From assembly GCF_003019035.1 (NCBI RefSeq), contig NZ_CP027447.1: a stretch of DNA of 64,000 nucleotides, one strand, 5' to 3'. A program made the position numbers and the translations under genes. This stretch comes from Escherichia coli. GTDB taxonomy: Bacteria > Pseudomonadota > Gammaproteobacteria > Enterobacterales > Enterobacteriaceae. The notes below the pieces were generated by a model. The model ran no database searches. It was not told where the DNA came from and was given only the letters and a program-made list of their open reading frames with translations. Positions 1 through 9,387 of this stretch are shown here, piece after piece; within the stretch, counting starts at the first letter, position 1; each line of letters starts with the position of its first letter.

Positions 1-505
1 AAATCCCCTGATCTTCACGGTTGAGACGCTGCTTAACCGCTTCTTTGTTGATCATCTGGTTAACGGAGAAGTGTTTGCCAATATCGCGCAGGAAGGTCAG
101 CACATTCATATTGCCGAACCAGTCATAGTTGTTCGCCGCGATAGCAGAGTTTTCTCCACAGTCGAAATCGAGGAACGGGGCAACCTGCTTGCGGATTTTG
201 TCCACCCATTCCTGAACAGTTTCTTCGGTGTTCAGCTTACGCTCAGCAGCTTTGAAGCTCGGGTCGCCAATCAGACCCGTCGCGCCGCCTACCAGCGCAA
301 CCGGCTTGTGGCCCGCCTGCTGGAAGCGTTTCAGGCATAACAATGGAACAAGATGCCCCAAATGCAAGCTGTCAGCGGTAGGATCGAAGCCGCAATAGAG
401 CGCGATCGGGCCTTGCGCCAGTCGCTCTGCTAACGCTTCCTCGTCCGTCACCTGGGCTACCAGCCCCCGCTCTTGCAATTGTTTAATCAAGTTACTGCTT
501 GCCAT
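1..505 (-). CDS. tyrS: Tyrosyl-tRNA synthetase, N-terminal ~168 codons only (gene continues beyond window start)
   Basis: Reverse-complement translation from the ATG at 503-505 reads [19 protein letters not shown]...[14 protein letters not shown] (HIGH motif); no stop within window. Confidence 0.9.
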
Positions 506-633
506 CAAAATCTCCATGTATATAACGACTGCACCTTTGCCGGTACACGACTTTTCGCCAGATGCGAAAGAGACATAGAATAAAGTGCCAGAATCAGGAG
601 TACCAGCGATTAAAGCAAGATTTTTGCATCTTT

Positions 634-1290
634 TCAGGGGGCAAGACGATCAATCTTCCACGCATCATTTTCACGCTGGTACAAAAAGCGGTCATGCAGG
701 CGATGCTCACCGCCCTGCCAGAACTCAATCTGTTCAAGGCTGACGCGAAAACCGCCCCAAAAACTCGGCAATGGCACTTCGCCCTGTTGAAACTTCTGCT
801 TCAGCTCCAGGAATTTACTTTCAAGGATACCGCGGGCAGAAATGCGACTGGACTGCTTCGAAACCCATGCACCAATCTGGCTATCACGGGGGCGACTATG
901 AAAATATTTCATCACTTCGAGAGTCGAAAGTCGTTCCGCTTTACCGATCACCATCACCTGGCGTTCAAGGGTATGCCACGGGAACAGCAGGCTAACGCGC
1001 GGATTATTTTCAATTTGATGTGCTTTACGGCTGCCGAGGTTGGTGTAAAACACCATGCCTTTTTCGTCGTAATGTTTGAGTAAAACGATGCGCTGATAAG
1101 GCTGACCATGTTCATCCACGGTAGCGACCACCATCGCGGTAGGGTCCGCCAGTTTGGCGTCACAAGCCTGAGAGAGCCAACGTTCAAAAAGGGTTAATGG
1201 CTCGGCAGGAAGATCGCGGCGGCGTAACCCGCCTTTGGTGTATTCACGGCGCAGATGCGCGATTTGCTGCAATTCGTCGTTATCAGACAT
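634..1290 (-). CDS. pdxH: Pyridoxine/pyridoxamine 5'-phosphate oxidase
   Basis: 218-aa [30 protein letters not shown]..., recognised as PdxH; lies upstream of tyrS on the same strand. Confidence 0.9.
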
Positions 1291-1348
1291 GGTTTTCTTT
1301 ACGGATTGTCAGTGGGTGACGCTATTGTGCGCCGCCCCTGGAAAAATC

Positions 1349-1678
1349 TCAACGCTGTGGATTTTGTAACTGACAGTTATTCAAGACGATGCGGTCGCGT
1401 TTATAGACAGTCGCTTCCTCGCCTTTCGACCAGAAAACATAGATCCCGTCGGTGTAACGTGCACCAGACGCAGAAATGCCCTGTTTGAGATGCAATAGTT
1501 GATTATCATAAACAAAACTGACTTCCTGGCGCGGATTATTCAGTTTGACCGTCAACGGTTTTTCATCACACTGGTATTCCAGCGTATCGGTTTGCATGCG
1601 CTCAACCAGTTGATTGAACGCGCTACAGCCGGTGAGAAGGACCGGCAAACAGATCAGTAACAGTTTTTTCATAGACAT
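1349..1678 (-). CDS. mliC: Membrane-bound lysozyme inhibitor of C-type lysozyme (lipoprotein)
   Basis: 109-aa ORF with signal peptide and lipobox LLTGC; recognised as MliC/YdhA. Confidence 0.85.
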
Positions 1679-1775
1679 ATCCCGAAGACTTTCCTGGTCT
1701 GGAGGGCAATACGCCCTCCCTAACGTTCCAAGTGTAACGGCAGACGCGGTAAGAAAAATTCAGTTAACTCTGATA

Positions 1776-2885
1776 TCACGGGTTAGCGGGGAAAATAGCC
1801 CCCAGTACCGTCTCCTGGCTTGCGCCAGTGACGGAAGGCAGATTTCCTGGTAATCCCGCCAGCGTTCGCCAGGCAAGCCAGGCGAACGCCAATGCTTCCA
1901 TGTCATCGCCACTAATGCCAACGGCATCGGTGGTGGTGACTTCTGTGCCTGGCAGTAATGCCGCCAGACGCGCCATGAGTAGCGGATTACGACTTCCTCC
2001 ACCACATACCATCAATCGTTCGCAGCCACCGCTCAACAAAACTTGTTCAGAAATGGTCACGGCGGTTAGTTCTGCCAGTGTCGCCTGTACATCTCGGGGA
2101 TCAACCCCCGGAAAATGGCGCAAATGGCGCTCCAGCCAGCCGTAGTTAAAGTATTCGCGTCCGGTACTTTTCGGTGCAGGTTGCGAGAAATATGGGTCGC
2201 TGAGCATATTTTGCAGCAGTGGGAGAATGACTTTACCCGCCCGTGCCCACTCGGCATCTTTATCGTAAGGTTTACCGGCCTGACGCCAGATCCAGGCATC
2301 CATCAGCATGTTACCAGGGCCGGTATCGTAGCCCCCTACCGGCTGCCCAGGAATGAGCAGTGACAGATTGGCGATGCCACCAATATTGAGCACCATTCGT
2401 CGCTCGGTTGGGTGAGCCAGCAGCGCATGATGGAACGCAGGTACCAGCGGTGCGCCTTGTCCTCCCAAGGCAATATCGCGACGGCGAAAATCACCGACAA
2501 CCGTAATTCCGGTGCGCGCCACAATTTGATTGTTATCGCCAATCTGTAAAGTGTGTGGTGCCACGCCCGTCGGTTCATGCCAGACGGTTTGACCGTGACA
2601 GCCGATCGCAACGATATCTCTCGCCTGCAGGTTTTGTTCCTTAAGCAAGGCATTGACCGCATCAGCAAAAAGTCGCCCGAGTTGAGTATCAAGTTGTCCA
2701 AACTGCGAAAGTGTAAGCTGCTGGCCCTGGCAAATATCCAGTACAGCCTGTTTCAAAGACACCGGGATCGGCCAGCTCAAACTTGCCAGCTGTGCGACCC
2801 GGTGTTCATCAATTGTCGCCAACACAACATCAACACCATCAAGGCTGGTGCCTGACATAACGCCAATAAAGCGGCCCGATTTCAT
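1776..2885 (-). CDS. anmK: Anhydro-N-acetylmuramic acid kinase
   Basis: 369-aa [26 protein letters not shown]...; recognised as AnmK/YdhH. Confidence 0.9.
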
Positions 2886-2994
2886 AGTTCATCCTTTTTC
2901 AATCTGACGTTTGCGCACCACTCAAACATAAACTTTTCGTGAATACTATGCGGAATGACCGATTTTTACCGTTGGTAGTAAAACATTATCTTCA

Positions 2995-3000
2995 AATCAA
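2995..3000. repeat. Target-site duplication, low-coordinate copy, (A)ATCAA
   Basis: AATCAA immediately precedes the TG prophage terminus at 3001; the same hexamer follows the CA terminus at 40272..40277. Confidence 0.6.
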
Positions 3001-3045
3001 TGATGCGCCGCGCGATAAACGTACCTATTTCCGTGAGATAAATTA
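3001..3045. repeat. Right-end terminal inverted repeat with two putative transposase-binding motifs
   Basis: TGATGCGCCGCGCGATAAACG...CCGTGAGATAAAT; motifs GCGATAAAC (3012..3020) and CCGTGAGATAAAT (3031..3043) are mirrored at the other end. Confidence 0.55.
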
Positions 3046-3078: not shown

Positions 3079-3651
3079 TTACAACTCAGCTTGAGTTTGA
3101 AGTTCCTCTACAGGGTGATAACGATAAATCGTCGATATACCGATATCGTAAATAATTGCCAACTGTTTCCTGCTATAGCCATTTTTGATCAGCCTTGCTA
3201 TTTGTTCATGTTGCTCTTTTGTCAGTTTCGGACGACGTCCACCAATACGCCCCTGTGCACGTGCTGCTTCAAGTCCGGCCAGTGTTCGTTCGACTATTAA
3301 TTCACGCTCCATTTCCGCTAAAGCCCCCATGACGTGAAAAAAGAAACGTCCCATGGGTGTTGACGTATCAATGCTGTCTGTAAGACTACGGAAGTTAACC
3401 CCTTTTTCCCGCAGTTCCTCAATAAGAGTGATTAGGTGTTTCATGCTTCTGCCCAGCCTGTCCAGCTTCCAGACAACGAGCGTATCTCCTTCTGATAACG
3501 TTCTGAGCAGCTTTTTCAATCCCGGTCGGGCTGACTTTGTTCCGCTGATTTTATCCTCAAAAATCAGTTCACATCCTGCGCAGTTCAGTGCGTTTCGTTG
3601 TAAATCTGTATTCTGGTCATTTGTTGACACACGAATGTAGCCAATTTGCAT
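3079..3651 (-). CDS. Site-specific DNA invertase, serine recombinase of the Gin/Pin/Hin/Cin/Min family
   Basis: 190 aa from the ATG at 3649-3651: MQIGYIRVSTNDQNTDLQRNAL... with the catalytic Ser motif and a C-terminal HTH (GYSRKQLAIIYDIGISTIYRY). The track ORF extends further upstream from a non-ATG start. Confidence 0.9.
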   Translation of the reverse strand: MQIGYIRVSTNDQNTDLQRNALNCAGCELIFEDKISGTKSARPGLKKLLRTLSEGDTLVVWKLDRLGRSMKHLITLIEELREKGVNFRSLTDSIDTSTPMGRFFFHVMGALAEMERELIVERTLAGLEAARAQGRIGGRRPKLTKEQHEQIARLIKNGYSRKQLAIIYDIGISTIYRYHPVEELQTQAEL

Positions 3652-3705
3652 GAAAAATATCCTCTTTGTTTTGTTAAAAATACATAGCTGGTATAGGTGG
3701 GAGTT

Positions 3706-3930
3706 AAGACGAAAACGTTGGTTTGGGGGAAGGCTCTGCACTACCTGTTGGTGTGCCTGTTCCATGGCCGTCAGCCACACCGCCAACAGGGTGGCTGAAA
3801 TGTAACGGTGCAGCATTTTCTTCTGAAATGTACCCCAATCTGGCAAAGGCTTACCCCACGAATAAATTACCGGATTTACGGGGCGAATTTATCCGTGGCT
3901 GGGATGACGGACGAGGTATTGATGCAGGAC
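3706..3930 (+). repeat. Repeat copy A (~215 bp) starting with a candidate invertase crossover site
   Basis: GAAAACG-TT-GGTTTGGGGGAA at ~3706..3731 (core TT 3718-3719) resembles hix/gix half-sites (TTnnnnnAAACC); followed by the conserved tail-collar coding block GEGSALPVGVPVPWPSATPPTGWLKCNGAAFSS... Confidence 0.7.
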
Positions 3931-4184
3931 GAGAGATACTTTCATTTCAGGAAGGCACTATCGTCTCCGGTTTTGATGATAATGATACTGGGGATATCAG
4001 TTCACTTAGCTCAACACAATACGGATTTGGTGACACTCTAACCTCTAATCAATGGGGGGCCATAAATGGCAAAAAGTGGATATTTGATGCATCCAGTAAA
4101 GGTGCACAAAAATATGACTGGTGGGCTTATGTATCAGCTCGTCCGCGTAATATTGCATTTAATTACATCGTAAGAGCGGCATAG
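3723..4184 (+). CDS. Silent alternative tail-fibre C-terminal cassette A (tail-collar half plus variable receptor-binding end)
   Basis: 153 codons opening at TTG, no canonical start; shares the N-terminal ~68 aa and the terminal SARPRNIAFNYIVRAA with the expressed fibre; inverted relative to the fibre gene. Confidence 0.65.
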   Translation: MGEGSALPVGVPVPWPSATPPTGWLKCNGAAFSSEMYPNLAKAYPTNKLPDLRGEFIRGWDDGRGIDAGREILSFQEGTIVSGFDDNDTGDISSLSSTQYGFGDTLTSNQWGAINGKKWIFDASSKGAQKYDWWAYVSARPRNIAFNYIVRAA

Positions 4185-4402
4185 AAACGTTGGTTTGGGG
4201 GAAGGCTCTGCACTGCCCGTTGGTGTACCTGTTCCGTGGCCCTCAGCCACTCCACCAACGGGCTGGCTGAAATGCAACGGCGCAGCATTTTCTTCTGAAG
4301 ATTACCCCAAACTGGCACAGGCTTACCCCGCGAACAAATTACCGGATCTACGGGGTGAATTTATCCGTGGCTGGGATGACGGGCGAGGGATTGATGCAGG
4401 AC
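4179..4402 (+). repeat. Repeat copy B (~215 bp) starting with a candidate invertase crossover site
   Basis: AGAAACG-TT-GGTTTGGGGGAA (core TT 4191-4192) directly after the stop of cassette A; same conserved coding block. Confidence 0.7.
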
Positions 4403-4671
4403 GTGCTTTATTAAGCTTTCAAACTGGGATGCTGGAAAAACACCGCCATATTGTTGTAGCTAACGATGGGTATGACACAAAGGATGAATGGGAGTTGGCC
4501 ACAATTTTCAAAAAAACATATACACAAGGACGGGGACTTGATGCCACAAGTACAGGCGGGAGTCTGATCCCATCACCGACACTTCATTCACGAGGGAGTA
4601 TTGGTAACACTGGTGGTAGTGAAACTCGCCCCCGCAATATCGCATTTAACTATATCGTGAGGGCGGCTTAA
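4195..4671 (+). CDS. Silent alternative tail-fibre C-terminal cassette B
   Basis: 158 codons opening at TTG; conserved N-terminal block and terminal ETRPRNIAFNYIVRAA; distinct variable middle. Confidence 0.65.
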   Translation: MGEGSALPVGVPVPWPSATPPTGWLKCNGAAFSSEDYPKLAQAYPANKLPDLRGEFIRGWDDGRGIDAGRALLSFQTGMLEKHRHIVVANDGYDTKDEWELATIFKKTYTQGRGLDATSTGGSLIPSPTLHSRGSIGNTGGSETRPRNIAFNYIVRAA

Positions 4672-4677
4672 TTATAC

Positions 4678-5295
4678 TCAACTGGCTGCTGCCAGAGGCA
4701 TTTCCGGCCAGTTGATATCCGGTGCAGTGCTGATGTCAGTCGCATTAAGCGTATCTATGAAATCAAGCACGGCGTTTAGTTTTTCCGTCTCCTGGGGCGT
4801 CAATCGGCGTCCGGCTCGTAGTTTGAGATTAATAAGCTCAACAGATGCCATTGCCTGTTCCTCAAGTTGCTGACGATGCGCTCCGGCAGCTTCCAGTTCT
4901 GCTGCGTGCTGTCGTCTCGTATCTGTCACCCAAATCTCACCATCCCAGACATCATAGATAGTAGCTGGCTGTTTCACCGTCGTATCAGGAGGGTAATCTC
5001 CCGGTTGTGTGATTTGCACAGCGTTACCATTCTCTGTGCTGTAAACCGTTTCGCCTCTGTGGTCTGGAACATATTTCCAGATGTTCTGGTCGGTATCACG
5101 ACAGACAGCGAAGCCGGGGCGTTTTTCTGGTGGCGCGTCAATGCATGAGTGAGCCGGAATTCCAACACCATAAGCGAGATACTCAACAGTGGCAGAGAGA
5201 TATTCACGGTTTTCAGCATCGTAGTTATAAACGGTAATATCGCCTGCAGTTATAGCGATACCATTCTGATCAAGTACTGCAGCAGCATTATTCAT
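4678..5295 (-). CDS. Tail fibre assembly protein (Tfa; Mu U / P2 G-like chaperone)
   Basis: 205 aa with the Tfa-type C-terminus ...LNAVLDFIDTLNATDISTAPDINWPE...; its ATG overlaps the stop of cassette 3 (TAATG); the only tfa in the region. Confidence 0.8.
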   Translation of the reverse strand: MNNAAAVLDQNGIAITAGDITVYNYDAENREYLSATVEYLAYGVGIPAHSCIDAPPEKRPGFAVCRDTDQNIWKYVPDHRGETVYSTENGNAVQITQPGDYPPDTTVKQPATIYDVWDGEIWVTDTRRQHAAELEAAGAHRQQLEEQAMASVELINLKLRAGRRLTPQETEKLNAVLDFIDTLNATDISTAPDINWPEMPLAAAS

Positions 5296-5768
5296 TAAGT
5301 AGCCCTTACAATATAGTTAAACGCAATATTACGGGGGCGGTTTTCCGTTCCTGTATTCCCTCCGTTGGCACCTAATCTATAAACACCACGAGTGCCAATA
5401 GCACGTAGTGAAGATGGAACTTTTACACCTGACTCATCTGTTTTAACAATCCCGCCATCACCGTATGTAGCCAGTATACCAGGGTTTGTTCCTGCACGGG
5501 TGCTGTTTGCGGCAAGCCCTTCACCAGTCCATAACTCCATATAATGAATATGATCTATAACCGAATGTGATTGTGCATTAAGCAAGGAACGCCCTGAATC
5601 AATTCCCCGCCCGTCATCCCAGCCACGAATAAACTCGCCCCGTAAATCCGGTAATTTATTGGTGGGGTAAGCCTTTGCCAGTTTGGGGTACATTTCAGAA
5701 GAAAATGCTGCACCGTTACATTTCAGCCACCCCGTTGGCGGCGTGGCTGAAGGCCATGGAACGGGCAC
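5295..5768 (-). CDS. Alternative tail-fibre C-terminal cassette 3 (same orientation as the fibre gene, translationally coupled to tfa)
   Basis: 157 codons from a GTG; conserved block then unique variable region, ending ...RPRNIAFNYIVRAT. Confidence 0.65.
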   Translation of the reverse strand: MPVPWPSATPPTGWLKCNGAAFSSEMYPKLAKAYPTNKLPDLRGEFIRGWDDGRGIDSGRSLLNAQSHSVIDHIHYMELWTGEGLAANSTRAGTNPGILATYGDGGIVKTDESGVKVPSSLRAIGTRGVYRLGANGGNTGTENRPRNIAFNYIVRAT

Positions 5769-5815
5769 ACCAACGGGCAGCGCCGAGCCTTCCCCTAAAC
5801 CAACGTTTTCATGCG
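5588..5815 (-). repeat. Repeat copy 3 with candidate crossover site
   Basis: Minus-strand GAAAACG-TT-GGTTTAGGGGAA (plus-strand core 5802-5803) directly after the stop of cassette 2. Confidence 0.7.
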
Positions 5816-6147
5816 GCTCTTACGATGTAATTGAATGCAACGTTGCGGGGGCGTGTTTCTGCTGTGCCGACAATACTGGTACTCAGTCCTGTCGCTGTTC
5901 GTTTGTTATTTTTATTCCCTTCGATAAGACAGTTGTAATCGTCATTACCAATTAACGAGTTGGTGGCATCAATACCGTCCGGGGACAAGGCATTAGTTGT
6001 GGAACTTAAAGTCAGCATCTCGTCTGAACTTGGAAGATTTTTTAATGGGGTCTCATTACGTGAAATACCCGCATAAAAAAAGGACTCATGCCTGTGCGCT
6101 TCAAAAGAGTCATCCTGAAGACTTAGCAAGGCACGCCCAGCATCCAA
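5809..6147 (-). CDS. Alternative tail-fibre C-terminal cassette 2 (variable part; conserved block lies upstream at ~6135..6357)
   Basis: Track ORF opens at TTG within ...WDDGRGLDAGRALLSLQDD...; ends ETRPRNVAFNYIVRAA. Confidence 0.6.
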   Translation of the reverse strand: MDAGRALLSLQDDSFEAHRHESFFYAGISRNETPLKNLPSSDEMLTLSSTTNALSPDGIDATNSLIGNDDYNCLIEGNKNNKRTATGLSTSIVGTAETRPRNVAFNYIVRAA

Positions 6148-6358
6148 GCCACGTCCATCATCCCAGCCACGGATAAATTCACCCCGTAGATCCGGTAATT
6201 TGTTCGCGGGGTAAGCCTGTGCCAGTTTGGGGTAATCTTCAGAAGAAAATGCTGCGCCGTTGCATTTCAGCCAGCCCGTTGGTGGAGTGGCTGAGGGCCA
6301 CGGAACAGGTACACCAACGGGCAGTGCAGAGCCTTCCCCAAACCAACGTTTCTATGCT
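6135..6358 (-). repeat. Repeat copy 2 with candidate crossover site
   Basis: Minus-strand AGAAACG-TT-GGTTTGGGGAAGG (plus-strand core 6345-6346) abutting the stop of the expressed fibre gene. Confidence 0.7.
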
Positions 6359-7317
6359 GCTCTCACAATGTAGTTAAAGGCGATGTTGCGTGGACGAGTT
6401 ACATTAAAAAAGGACCCACTTAAAGCAGCTTTGGCACGACCAGCGACGTTACCCAGAATTGCATACCATAAATAATCACTCCTGTAATTCGTTGAAAATG
6501 TTTTATCGCCACCGTAATCAATACTATTTCCGTTACTCATATATGAAATATCAACTGCGGCATCATTGTCATCTCTACCACCAACCAAAGTACCTTTCTG
6601 CCACCCAAGCAACTGGCGACCAGGATCAATCCCGCGCCCGTCATCCCAGCCACGGATAAATTCACCCCGTAAATCCGGTAATTTATTGGTGGGGTAAGCT
6701 TTTGCCAGTTTGGGATACATTTCAGAAGAAAATGCTGCACCGTTACATTTCAGCCAGCCCGTTGGTGGTGTTGCTGAGGGCCACGGAACAGGCACACCAA
6801 CGGGCAGCGCAGAGCCTTCCCCCAAACCAAGGTTTTTGACAAACAGCGCAGGATCAGGAATATCTGCGCCGTTCTGGTCTTTAGCCAGCTTTTCCGCCAG
6901 CTTGTTCAGTACCGTAGTCGCAAAGTTTGGATCATTACCGAGAGCGTCAGCCAGCTCTTTAAGCGTATCCAGTGTCTCAGGGGCGCTGCCTGCAAGCGCC
7001 GCAAGTGCTTTGGCCACAAACTCCGTTGTCGCCAGCTTTTTGCTGTTATCGCCATTTGCAGGTGTAGGTGCTGTTGGTGTGCCGGTGAATGTCGGACTGG
7101 CTTTCTGTGCGTACTGGGTATGCGGGTCTGCTGCCGCGATGTGTTTCGCAAGGTCAGCCCCGCCTTTTTCAACCTGTTGCTTCAGGTACAGCGTGCGGCT
7201 GGCCAGTTGTTTACCCTGACGGTTAGAAATTCCGTCAGGTCCGCCCAGAACGGGGTCAGAGACCTCAATCTGGTAGATGCCGTCTTCCCACTGCGGGGTT
7301 TCGGGTAGATTTGCCAT
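6352..7317 (-). CDS. Tail fibre protein (constant N-terminal part fused to currently expressed variable C-terminus 1)
   Basis: 321 aa; N-terminal fibre region (TTEFV motif), tail-collar block from residue ~164, ends VTRPRNIAFNYIVRAA; position matches Mu S. Confidence 0.85.
   Translation of the reverse strand: MANLPETPQWEDGIYQIEVSDPVLGGPDGISNRQGKQLASRTLYLKQQVEKGGADLAKHIAAADPHTQYAQKASPTFTGTPTAPTPANGDNSKKLATTEFVAKALAALAGSAPETLDTLKELADALGNDPNFATTVLNKLAEKLAKDQNGADIPDPALFVKNLGLGEGSALPVGVPVPWPSATPPTGWLKCNGAAFSSEMYPKLAKAYPTNKLPDLRGEFIRGWDDGRGIDPGRQLLGWQKGTLVGGRDDNDAAVDISYMSNGNSIDYGGDKTFSTNYRSDYLWYAILGNVAGRAKAALSGSFFNVTRPRNIAFNYIVRAA
6612..6843 (-). repeat. Repeat copy 1, inside the expressed fibre gene, with the crossover site joining constant and variable parts
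   Basis: Sense-strand GTCAAAAACC-TT-GGTTTGGGGGAAGG (plus-strand core 6829-6830), a near-palindrome AAACCAAGGTTT resembling hix. Confidence 0.7.
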
Positions 7318-9331: not shown

Positions 9332-9387
9332 GGAGGCAGTATTGCCCCCGGGAAGTAAGCACCGATATTAAAGGCGTTTAAGAAGGT

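Follow-up and report, generated by a model that had tools for sequence, protein, structure and literature searches.

DNA inversion systems that vary phage tail fibers are known from plasmids and prophages. The Min multiple inversion system, described by Sandmeier, Iida, Arber et al. (1990-1992; cited in PMC5903667 and PMC6906374), belongs to the IncY phage-plasmid p15B, and pJIE250-3 is 98.5% identical to Min (PMC6906374). In the P2-like prophage of enteropathogenic Escherichia coli (EPEC) E2348/69, a three-site 'shufflon' gives four variants that coexist in clonal cultures according to deep sequencing and PCR (Goldberg et al., 2014; PMC4272514). Enterobacter phage FR-phi has a gin-dependent tail-fiber array with three isoforms, the amounts of which were determined with long reads from DNA of lysogens and virions; deletion of gin locks its state and FhuA is used by only one isoform, which shows that arrays of this kind control host tropism (PMC13418256). 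Here, we analyze a stretch of 64,000 nucleotides from the chromosome of E. coli (assembly GCF_003019035.1, contig NZ_CP027447.1; hereafter the window), in which positions 3079-7317 hold a tail-fiber gene, four silent alternative 3' ends for it, one gene for a tail fiber assembly protein (Tfa) and one invertase gene. This array lies at the right end of a Mu-like transposable prophage, and we consider it very likely that it works as a multiple DNA inversion system of the Min type. We found no published description of this five-variant Mu-like array, the published prophage examples having three variants.

Repeats and crossover sites

Two families of direct repeats lie in the array, D1 with three copies of 230 nt (5580-5809, 6124-6353, and 6607-6836) and D2 with two copies of 219 nt (3713-3931 and 4185-4403). 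The two families are mutually inverted with 83-94% complementarity, and the five-way alignment reaches a mean column identity of 87% across ~230 nt. The site motif AAAC[C/G]-TT-GGTTT[G/A]GGGGAA has five matches in the window. Likewise, AAACSTTGGTTTRGGGG occurs exactly five times in the 64 kb, at 3713 and 4185 on the plus strand and at 5808, 6351, and 6835 on the minus strand, with a chance expectation of 0.01 and none of 100 shuffles reaching five.

The five 26-bp sites, AAAC(C/G)-TT-GGTTT, align without gaps to gixR and pix and share inverted AAACC/GGTTT half-site cores around a 2-bp center. Three have the orientation of the fiber gene and two are inverted, all within 3.1 kb beside a single invertase gene. 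Site s1 (6817-6842, minus strand; TTGTCAAAAACC-TT-GGTTTGGGGGAA; TT at 6829-6830) is in frame inside the expressed fiber gene, where codon 163 (CTT) holds the TT core. Each of the three internal sites follows directly on the stop codon that ends the cassette before it (TAG/TGA + AAACG). The left half of s2 (6333-6358, minus strand; TT at 6345-6346) includes the TAG stop of cassette c1, that of s3 (5790-5815, minus strand; TT at 5802-5803; right half GGTTTAGGGGAA) the TGA stop of c2, and that of s5 (4178-4203, plus strand; TT at 4190-4191) the TAG stop of c4. The invertase-proximal site s4 (3706-3731, plus strand; GAGTTAAGACGAAAACG-TT-GGTTTGGGGGAA region; TT at 3718-3719) has its core 67.5 bp from the invertase ATG, a spacing equal to those of gixR-gin and pix-pinE. 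Within the collar repeats, an antisense open reading frame (ORF) of ~51 aa (MPVWG.LQKKML...) recurs at 3650-3805, 4163-4318, 5675-5830, and 6219-6377; it recurs because the collar block is repeated, and these ORFs are likely to be called as spurious genes.

An earlier sequence-only reading of this DNA had claimed five copies of a collar block, three oriented as the fiber gene and two inverted, each beginning with a site at the stop codon of the preceding cassette or in frame within the expressed gene. It had further claimed a Gin/Pin/Hin-family invertase at the end of the array, a single Tfa and a constant fiber part of residues 1-163. This anatomy holds throughout: the repeats resolve into D1 and D2 and align as given above, the TT cores lie where that reading had put the site cores, the invertase (3079-3651, minus strand) and Tfa (4678-5295, minus strand) are identified by homology, and the in-frame core of s1 sets the border of the constant part.

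The invertase

The serine DNA invertase has 190 aa, with the catalytic Ser9 in an RVSTNDQ motif and a C-terminal helix-turn-helix; its start is assigned to the ATG and not to the longer TTG ORF. A phmmer search against the PDB aligns residues 1-183 end to end with Mu Gin (4m6f/3uj3; E ~1e-90, ~75% identity), the RVSTNDQ motif being conserved. Its identity is 81.5% with e14 PinE, 94.2% with the invertase of the EPEC shufflon, 96.3% with that of an IncY P1-like plasmid, and 100% with that of the second prophage in strain JB2. It matches PHROG 125 'DNA invertase' (E=1.5e-98), and a protein identical to it carries the Pfam domains Resolvase and HTH_7. In NCBIfam, the invertase has sub-threshold matches only, and the fiber, the cassettes and Tfa are without a specific model. 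The similarity extends to the DNA: from the invertase-proximal site through the spacer to nucleotide 260 of the gene, the window aligns to gixR-gin and pix-pinE without insertions or deletions; the first 120 nt of the gene are 77-80% identical to gin. Judged by these sequence features, the window invertase can be assigned to the Gin/Hin/Cin/Pin/Min ('Din') subfamily of serine recombinases.

In Mu, the Fis enhancer sits within the invertase gene (Kahmann, 1985, cited in PMC3798978). Fis-like G-N13-C cores at +29 and +101 are kept in the window invertase gene, gin, pinE and the IncY gene.

The constant fiber part, the cassettes and Tfa

The constant 5' part of the fiber gene, Sc (6829-7317, minus strand), comprises codons 1-163 of the last gene of a Mu-like late tail/baseplate operon. 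The currently expressed 3' end, cassette c1 (6352-6828, minus strand), encodes fiber residues 164-321 and is homologous to the T4 gp37 tip (PDB 2XGF), which it matches in the collar block and the C-terminal RPRNIAFNYIVRAA. Downstream of the fiber gene follow c2, c3 and Tfa in the same orientation, then c5 and c4 on the other strand, and then the invertase gene. The silent cassette c2 (5809-6344, minus strand) has its own frame intact (177 codons) and is -1 out of frame with the crossover site. Silent c3 (5295-5801, minus strand; 168 aa + stop) is co-oriented with the fiber gene and translationally coupled to Tfa (205 aa), the sole copy in the array, whose start overlaps the c3 stop (TAATG). 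The remaining silent cassettes are inverted relative to the fiber gene: c5 (4192-4671, plus strand; 159 aa + stop), which is convergent with Tfa at a distance of 6 bp, and c4 (3720-4184, plus strand; 154 aa + stop).

All cassettes have a Pfam Collar domain and match the receptor-binding tip of T4 gp37 at their N-terminal collar block and extreme C-terminus (...NIAFNYIVR-L/A-A). In their alignment, ~77 near-invariant residues at the N-terminus are followed by 60-90 residues that cannot be aligned and by 14 invariant residues at the C-terminus with the strand RPRN(I/V)AFNYIVRA(A/T). Just past the collar, c2, c3, and c5 carry an HxH motif as in the gp37 needle, which is replaced by DDND in c1 and c4. 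The invariant collar block forms the 215-230-bp DNA repeat, which therefore codes for a conserved structural scaffold; the variable middle presumably binds the receptor. Tfa matches PHROG 105 'tail fiber assembly' (E=5.5e-83), and a protein identical to it has the Pfam domains Caudo_TAP_N and Caudo_TAP.

Cassette c2 is peculiar in the window copy. Its site is followed by GGGG and not GGGGG (CCCC on the plus strand at 6336-6339), one G being lost just 3' of the core, which the sequence-only reading had overlooked. In this copy, the frame of an Sc-c2 fusion meets a stop after 25 codons, and addition of one G gives a 178-aa cassette. In 16 of 16 other copies of the prophage, every site has five Gs, so that the four Gs are unique to the window among 17 copies. 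They are either a private mutation or a homopolymer sequencing error.

Natural isomers of the array

We predicted the fusion proteins that recombination at the TT core would give and searched for them as exact sequences in public E. coli assemblies. The exact Sc-c1, Sc-c3, Sc-c4, and Sc-c5 proteins and the frame-repaired Sc-c2 protein are all present. The exact Sc-c4 fusion (317 aa) occurs in five contigs, Sc-c3 (331 aa) in three, and Sc-c5 (322 aa, WP_077888948.1) and repaired Sc-c2 (341 aa) in two contigs each.

The sample consists of 16 other copies of the 37-kb prophage and the window. The parts of the 16 further copies are 100% identical to those of the window, including Sc as an identical 487-nt block in all 16, and their insertion sites and array orders are different. 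The five cassettes could be placed in 13 copies (window included), and these 13 arrangements are all distinct. A common grammar governs them: cassettes co-oriented with Sc lie on the Sc side, c5-Tfa-c3 lies either way round, inverted cassettes lie on the invertase side, and the length of the array is constant. In a formal model that allows inversion only between oppositely oriented sites, the four segments yield 4! x 2 = 48 states, which are mutually reachable in at most four steps. All observed arrangements are among these 48 states, two to four inversions away from the window state. From the window state, the model reaches Sc-c5 or Sc-c4 by one inversion and c3 or c2 by two. The first products 6830 x 4191 and 6830 x 3718 and the second-step exposure of c2 and c3 that the sequence-only reading had foreseen agree with this model, and the alternative arrangements it had proposed exist in public assemblies of the same prophage. 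Its further claim that the constant part could be fused to any of five ends is correct for the prophage, as all five fusions occur; in the window copy, with its frameshift in c2, only four ends would be in frame.

The segments bounded by the TT cores (482, 542, 1610, and 470 bp) recur as exact, intact blocks in eight complete isomers; a ninth has two single-nucleotide polymorphisms. The left half-sites never move, that of s1 (…GTCAAAAACC) remaining joined to Sc and that of s4 (…GACGAAAACG) to the invertase side in every isomer, and the right halves exchange partners. Intact blocks and fixed left half-sites confine the exchange to the 7-bp interval TTGGTTT. This pattern suggests that the exchange is a site-specific inversion at the central dinucleotide.

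Alternatively, RecA-dependent homologous recombination between the 215-230-bp inverted collar repeats might make the arrangements, with the invertase irrelevant or defunct. With a length of 215-275 nt and 83-94% identity the repeats would be sufficient for RecA, and the hybrid c1/c3 collar of one copy (L018) has its crossover 18-38 nt within the repeat, as homologous recombination predicts. Crossovers spread over 230 nt would, however, leave hybrids in most events, whereas L018 is the sole such hybrid, and the eight complete isomers with exact TT-bounded blocks show neither a mosaic collar block nor a left half-site that travels. Moreover, the invertase ORF is intact and 94-100% identical in every array that shows isomers, and the related FR-phi array is locked by deletion of gin (PMC13418256). 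We therefore regard RecA as a very improbable source of the arrangements and site-specific inversion as their very likely origin.

The cassettes might also be inert duplications or decaying pseudogene remnants, and the isomers artefacts of short-read assembly across repeats. The frameshift of c2 in the window copy, a cassette annotated as frameshifted in strain A33, the prevalence of draft assemblies among the same-prophage isomers and a break of the short-read assembly of Escherichia phage PhiKM at the fiber gene would fit such an explanation. It is nevertheless extremely unlikely, as complete long-read genomes contain four arrangements of a sister array and two of the JB2/M-17 array (see below), every arrangement fits one strict grammar at constant array length, the cassette ORFs are unbroken and 100% conserved in the 17 copies, and the EPEC array was validated by PCR (PMC4272514). 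In addition, cassette-specific polymorphisms start ~20 nt from the core, so that the junctions of the draft isomers must be supported by reads.

Two copies are shortened. The array in L018 (8590-9106) is reduced to c5-Tfa-c3 with three cassettes lost and contains the hybrid collar, and the array in L030 (7974-10224) has cleanly lost c2 and c4. Either deletion between directly repeated copies or assembly collapse could account for both, and arrays of this type can shrink. We rejected invertase-mediated deletion in L018 because a hybrid within the repeat points to homologous recombination or assembly collapse. In L030, the collars of c2 and c5 are identical for 188 nt, so the loss may be of either kind, invertase-mediated or homologous.

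A model for the switch and the role of the single Tfa

In the proposed mechanism, the Gin/Pin-family invertase (3079-3651) would pair oppositely oriented 26-bp sites and recombine them at the central TT. Of the five sites, one lies in frame at codon 163, one beside the invertase gene and three on the borders between cassettes, each with the left half of the site including the stop codon of the cassette before it. Cassette segments run from a right half-site to a left half-site, and the central c5 > < Tfa < c3 segment has right half-sites at both ends. Inversions would then permute and flip the four segments, and the cassette abutting Sc (residues 1-163) would be expressed as the fiber tip. Each cassette is a miniature T4-gp37-like tip with an invariant collar of ~77 aa, a variable middle of 60-90 aa and an invariant C-terminal strand. 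Three parts of this model are inferred from the sequences: catalysis of the exchanges by the resident invertase with host Fis, switching within one culture, and a host range that differs with the tip. Virions released by a population of lysogens would accordingly be expected to have up to five adsorption specificities.

Several points weigh against this interpretation. The isomers all come from other assemblies and none from reads of the window strain. Most same-prophage isomers are draft assemblies, in which a mixed population could give a path that is absent from any single molecule. In the window copy, c2 is out of frame, which leaves four in-frame ends only. The loss of cassettes in L018 and L030 means that the array is not perfectly conservative. 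A simple scan for Fis sites (G-N13-C, A/T-rich center, 48-bp spacing) found no canonical pair in the invertase gene for the Fis enhancer, a defining cis element of such systems, and different receptor specificities of the five tips are presumed from sequence. Finally, Tfa is antisense to the fiber operon in 24 of the 48 model states and in 7 of 16 observed scorable copies. A scan of the array for sigma-70 promoters and terminators gave nothing above shuffled expectation, nor did it reveal a promoter on the invertase side that would read into the array. With Tfa antisense in half of the isomers and no inward promoter, not all arrangements may give assembled fibers.

In every array, the single Tfa sits in the segment with right half-sites at both ends, and it is antisense whenever Sc-c5 is expressed. 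T4 gp37 requires gp38, a Tfa-like chaperone. Plausibly, one Tfa could serve all cassettes, as the collar and the C-terminal strand are common to all of them. Inversion could act at two levels, choosing the tip and at the same time setting the supply of chaperone, or these gp37-like tips may need no co-expressed Tfa in order to fold. We raise these possibilities tentatively and hold them to be rather doubtful.

Prophage context

Positions 1-3001 of the window are 100% identical to tyrS-pdxH-mliC-anmK of E. coli strain SCU-301 and are thus E. coli chromosome. The Mu-like transposable prophage (3002-40268, 37.3 kb) carries the array at its invertase end and is inserted in the anmK-slyB intergenic region, with junctions at 3001/3002 and 40268/40269. 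SCU-301 has the empty site, both flanks of which are 100% identical to the window flanks, and TCAAATCAAT, 10 bp of the empty-site sequence, is directly duplicated around the prophage. The classical target duplication of Mu, 5 bp, is shorter. Inverted CCGTGAGATAAAT motifs lie ~28-30 nt inside each prophage end. The prophage shares 94% nucleotide identity with Escherichia phage PhiKM, a Bcepmuvirus that has a transposase, and 86% with Klebsiella phage KP12. Its late operon on the minus strand encodes the tape measure, gpU/X/D-like proteins and baseplate V/W/J/I, followed by the 321-aa tail-fiber gene (7317-6352).

The array might switch but serve the bacterium, as a tailocin-like weapon or a defense-related decoy with varied target specificity. 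This possibility was raised by Goldberg et al. for prophage invertons (PMC4272514), and PinQ-driven inversion in a cryptic prophage reportedly alters T2 adsorption (PMC12529663). With its 37.3 kb and its genes for head, tail, lysis, and transposase, however, the prophage of the window appears complete. Other strains have copies 100% identical to it at more than eight further chromosomal positions, one of them within otsA in M-17, which indicates recent activity, that is transposition and infection as a phage. A benefit to the bacterium as the function of the array is hence hardly probable, and we favor a receptor-binding switch of the phage itself.

The deposited PhiKM genome (L007, 19287-20544) is marked 'partial' and joins the fiber gene straight to early genes, without invertase or cassettes; an ORF labeled 'Fe2+ ABC transporter permease' lies antisense to the 3' end of its fiber gene. 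Probably, the assembly of short reads collapsed at the collar repeats and the 'permease' ORF is spurious. The sister prophage at yehQ (L002/L003/L004-L006, e.g., L002 9817-10692) has an extra gene between baseplate W and V, which encodes a 291-aa protein with a PD-(D/E)XK nuclease domain and may be a moron or defense cargo; the window has only a 56-bp gap (9332-9387) at this position.

Related arrays

Arrays of four to at least nine cassettes are common in E. coli, where they occur in prophages of the Mu-like and P2-like types and in IncY plasmids; this abundance rests on fetched examples, since the BLAST count of collar copies per genome (median 1, maximum 11) under-counts arrays. The sequence-only reading had held that multi-site arrays are known mainly from p15B. 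That view is outdated, as three-variant prophage arrays have been demonstrated (PMC4272514; PMC13418256) and arrays of four to at least nine cassettes are frequent.

The prophage at yehQ in E. coli from mice carries a four-cassette sister array that occurs in four arrangements in complete long-read genomes (DEF2, FEA3, 3-72, and 8178); DEF2 and FEA3 differ exactly by one cassette translocated and inverted onto Sc. JB2 and M-17, also complete long-read genomes, share one set of five cassettes in two orders. Larger arrays have seven cassettes in A33, six in the second JB2 prophage, six in a P2-like prophage of ETEC6335 and at least nine in an IncY plasmid. In this IncY P1-like plasmid, pEH09-18-41_2 (L011, 3639-8649), a single Tfa accompanies crossover sites and cassettes that number at least nine, and two of the cassettes, in opposite orientations, encode the same protein, WP_176477383.1. 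The two multi-cassette arrays of JB2 (five cassettes at L001, 1.80 Mb; six at L010, 0.67 Mb) belong to two prophages and have invertases that are 99.5-100% identical and identical crossover sites; action in trans, or recombination between the arrays 1.1 Mb apart, is conceivable. A megablast search with the whole array against complete E. coli genomes gave no collinear match of at least 80%, as shuffling and the unique Mu-type insertion site break collinearity. The lack of such a match is hence no sign of a rare locus, as it had first seemed to be.

Invertases that are 94-100% identical and identical sites are distributed across Mu-like prophages, P2-like prophages and IncY plasmids. It is conceivable on this basis, though we think it unlikely, that the invertase-site-cassette unit is a portable module with a shared 'operating system.' If so, the invertase could act in trans on co-resident arrays, and the cassettes would be a common pool across unrelated phages.

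Such arrays matter beyond this prophage. Annotation shows them as no more than a row of ORFs named 'phage tail protein', and assemblies from short reads are broken or scrambled at these loci, so that host-range predictions for such prophages from one assembly are unreliable. The array of the window is a natural five-way switch of receptor binding, as proposed above, on a small 321-aa fiber in an apparently active transposable coliphage, and public genomes alone reveal every expression state and narrow the crossover to TTGGTTT. The compact design of the cassettes, with an invariant collar, a swappable middle of 60-90 aa and an invariant C-terminal strand, offers a scaffold for engineering the specificity of phages or tailocins, and the single-Tfa layout raises a concrete question on chaperone requirements. 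Specialists would expect the biology as such; what this array adds is the completeness of the evidence from nature, a module that is portable across phage types and the puzzle of the single Tfa.

Comparison with known inversion systems

The array resembles the Mu G segment with Gin in its position at the right end of a Mu-type genome, in an invertase that is ~71-75% identical to Gin, in the architecture of the 26-bp sites, in the 67.5-bp spacing between site and gene, and in the combination of a constant Sc with a variable part. However, Mu G, the P1 C segment with Cin and the e14 P segment with Pin have two sites, two variants and a chaperone gene per variant (U and U'), whereas the array combines five sites and five variants with one chaperone gene. 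It also differs in its central dinucleotide, which is TT here and TC/GA in gix. A G-type two-state switch is ruled out by the five sites, the four invertible segments and the single Tfa; the relative KP12 has the two-state form only.

The R64-type shufflon (Rci/pilV) shares the multiple inversion of 3' segments behind a constant 5' part and its combinatorial logic, but it uses the tyrosine recombinase Rci and sfx sites and varies an adhesin of the conjugative pilus. As the array encodes no recombinase other than the serine invertase, we rejected identity with an R64-type shufflon, and the word 'shufflon' applies loosely. FR-phi is similar in that a prophage tail fiber has several alternative C-termini; it differs in having three isoforms and in belonging to another phage and another genus, and this likeness is drawn from its published description.

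The array of EPEC E2348/69 is the same module: its invertase is 94.2% identical to that of the window, its sites agree over 40 nt, and one of its cassettes shares 95.6% identity with c5. Its parts are laid out in the same way, Sc-X> cassette> <Tfa <cassette invertase. It has three sites, three C-termini and four isomers compared with five, five, and 48 here, and a long P2-type fiber of 521 aa compared with the short Mu-like fiber of the window.

The p15B Min system shares with the array more than two sites in both orientations in one cluster, a Din-family invertase at the edge and one constant 5' fiber part that can be joined to alternative 3' parts. The likeness to the IncY P1-like plasmid extends to 96.3% invertase identity (a proxy for Min X62121), sites of the form AAACGTTGGTTT[G/A]GGGGAAGG and the one-Tfa layout. 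The p15B Min array reportedly has six sites and 240 isomers, and the array of pEH09-18-41_2 would be larger than this six-site array. Min resides in a P1-like plasmid, whereas the array of the window, with five sites and 48 isomers, resides in a chromosomal Mu-like prophage. The array is a known Min-type module in extended form, a larger copy of a type of switch known since 1990.

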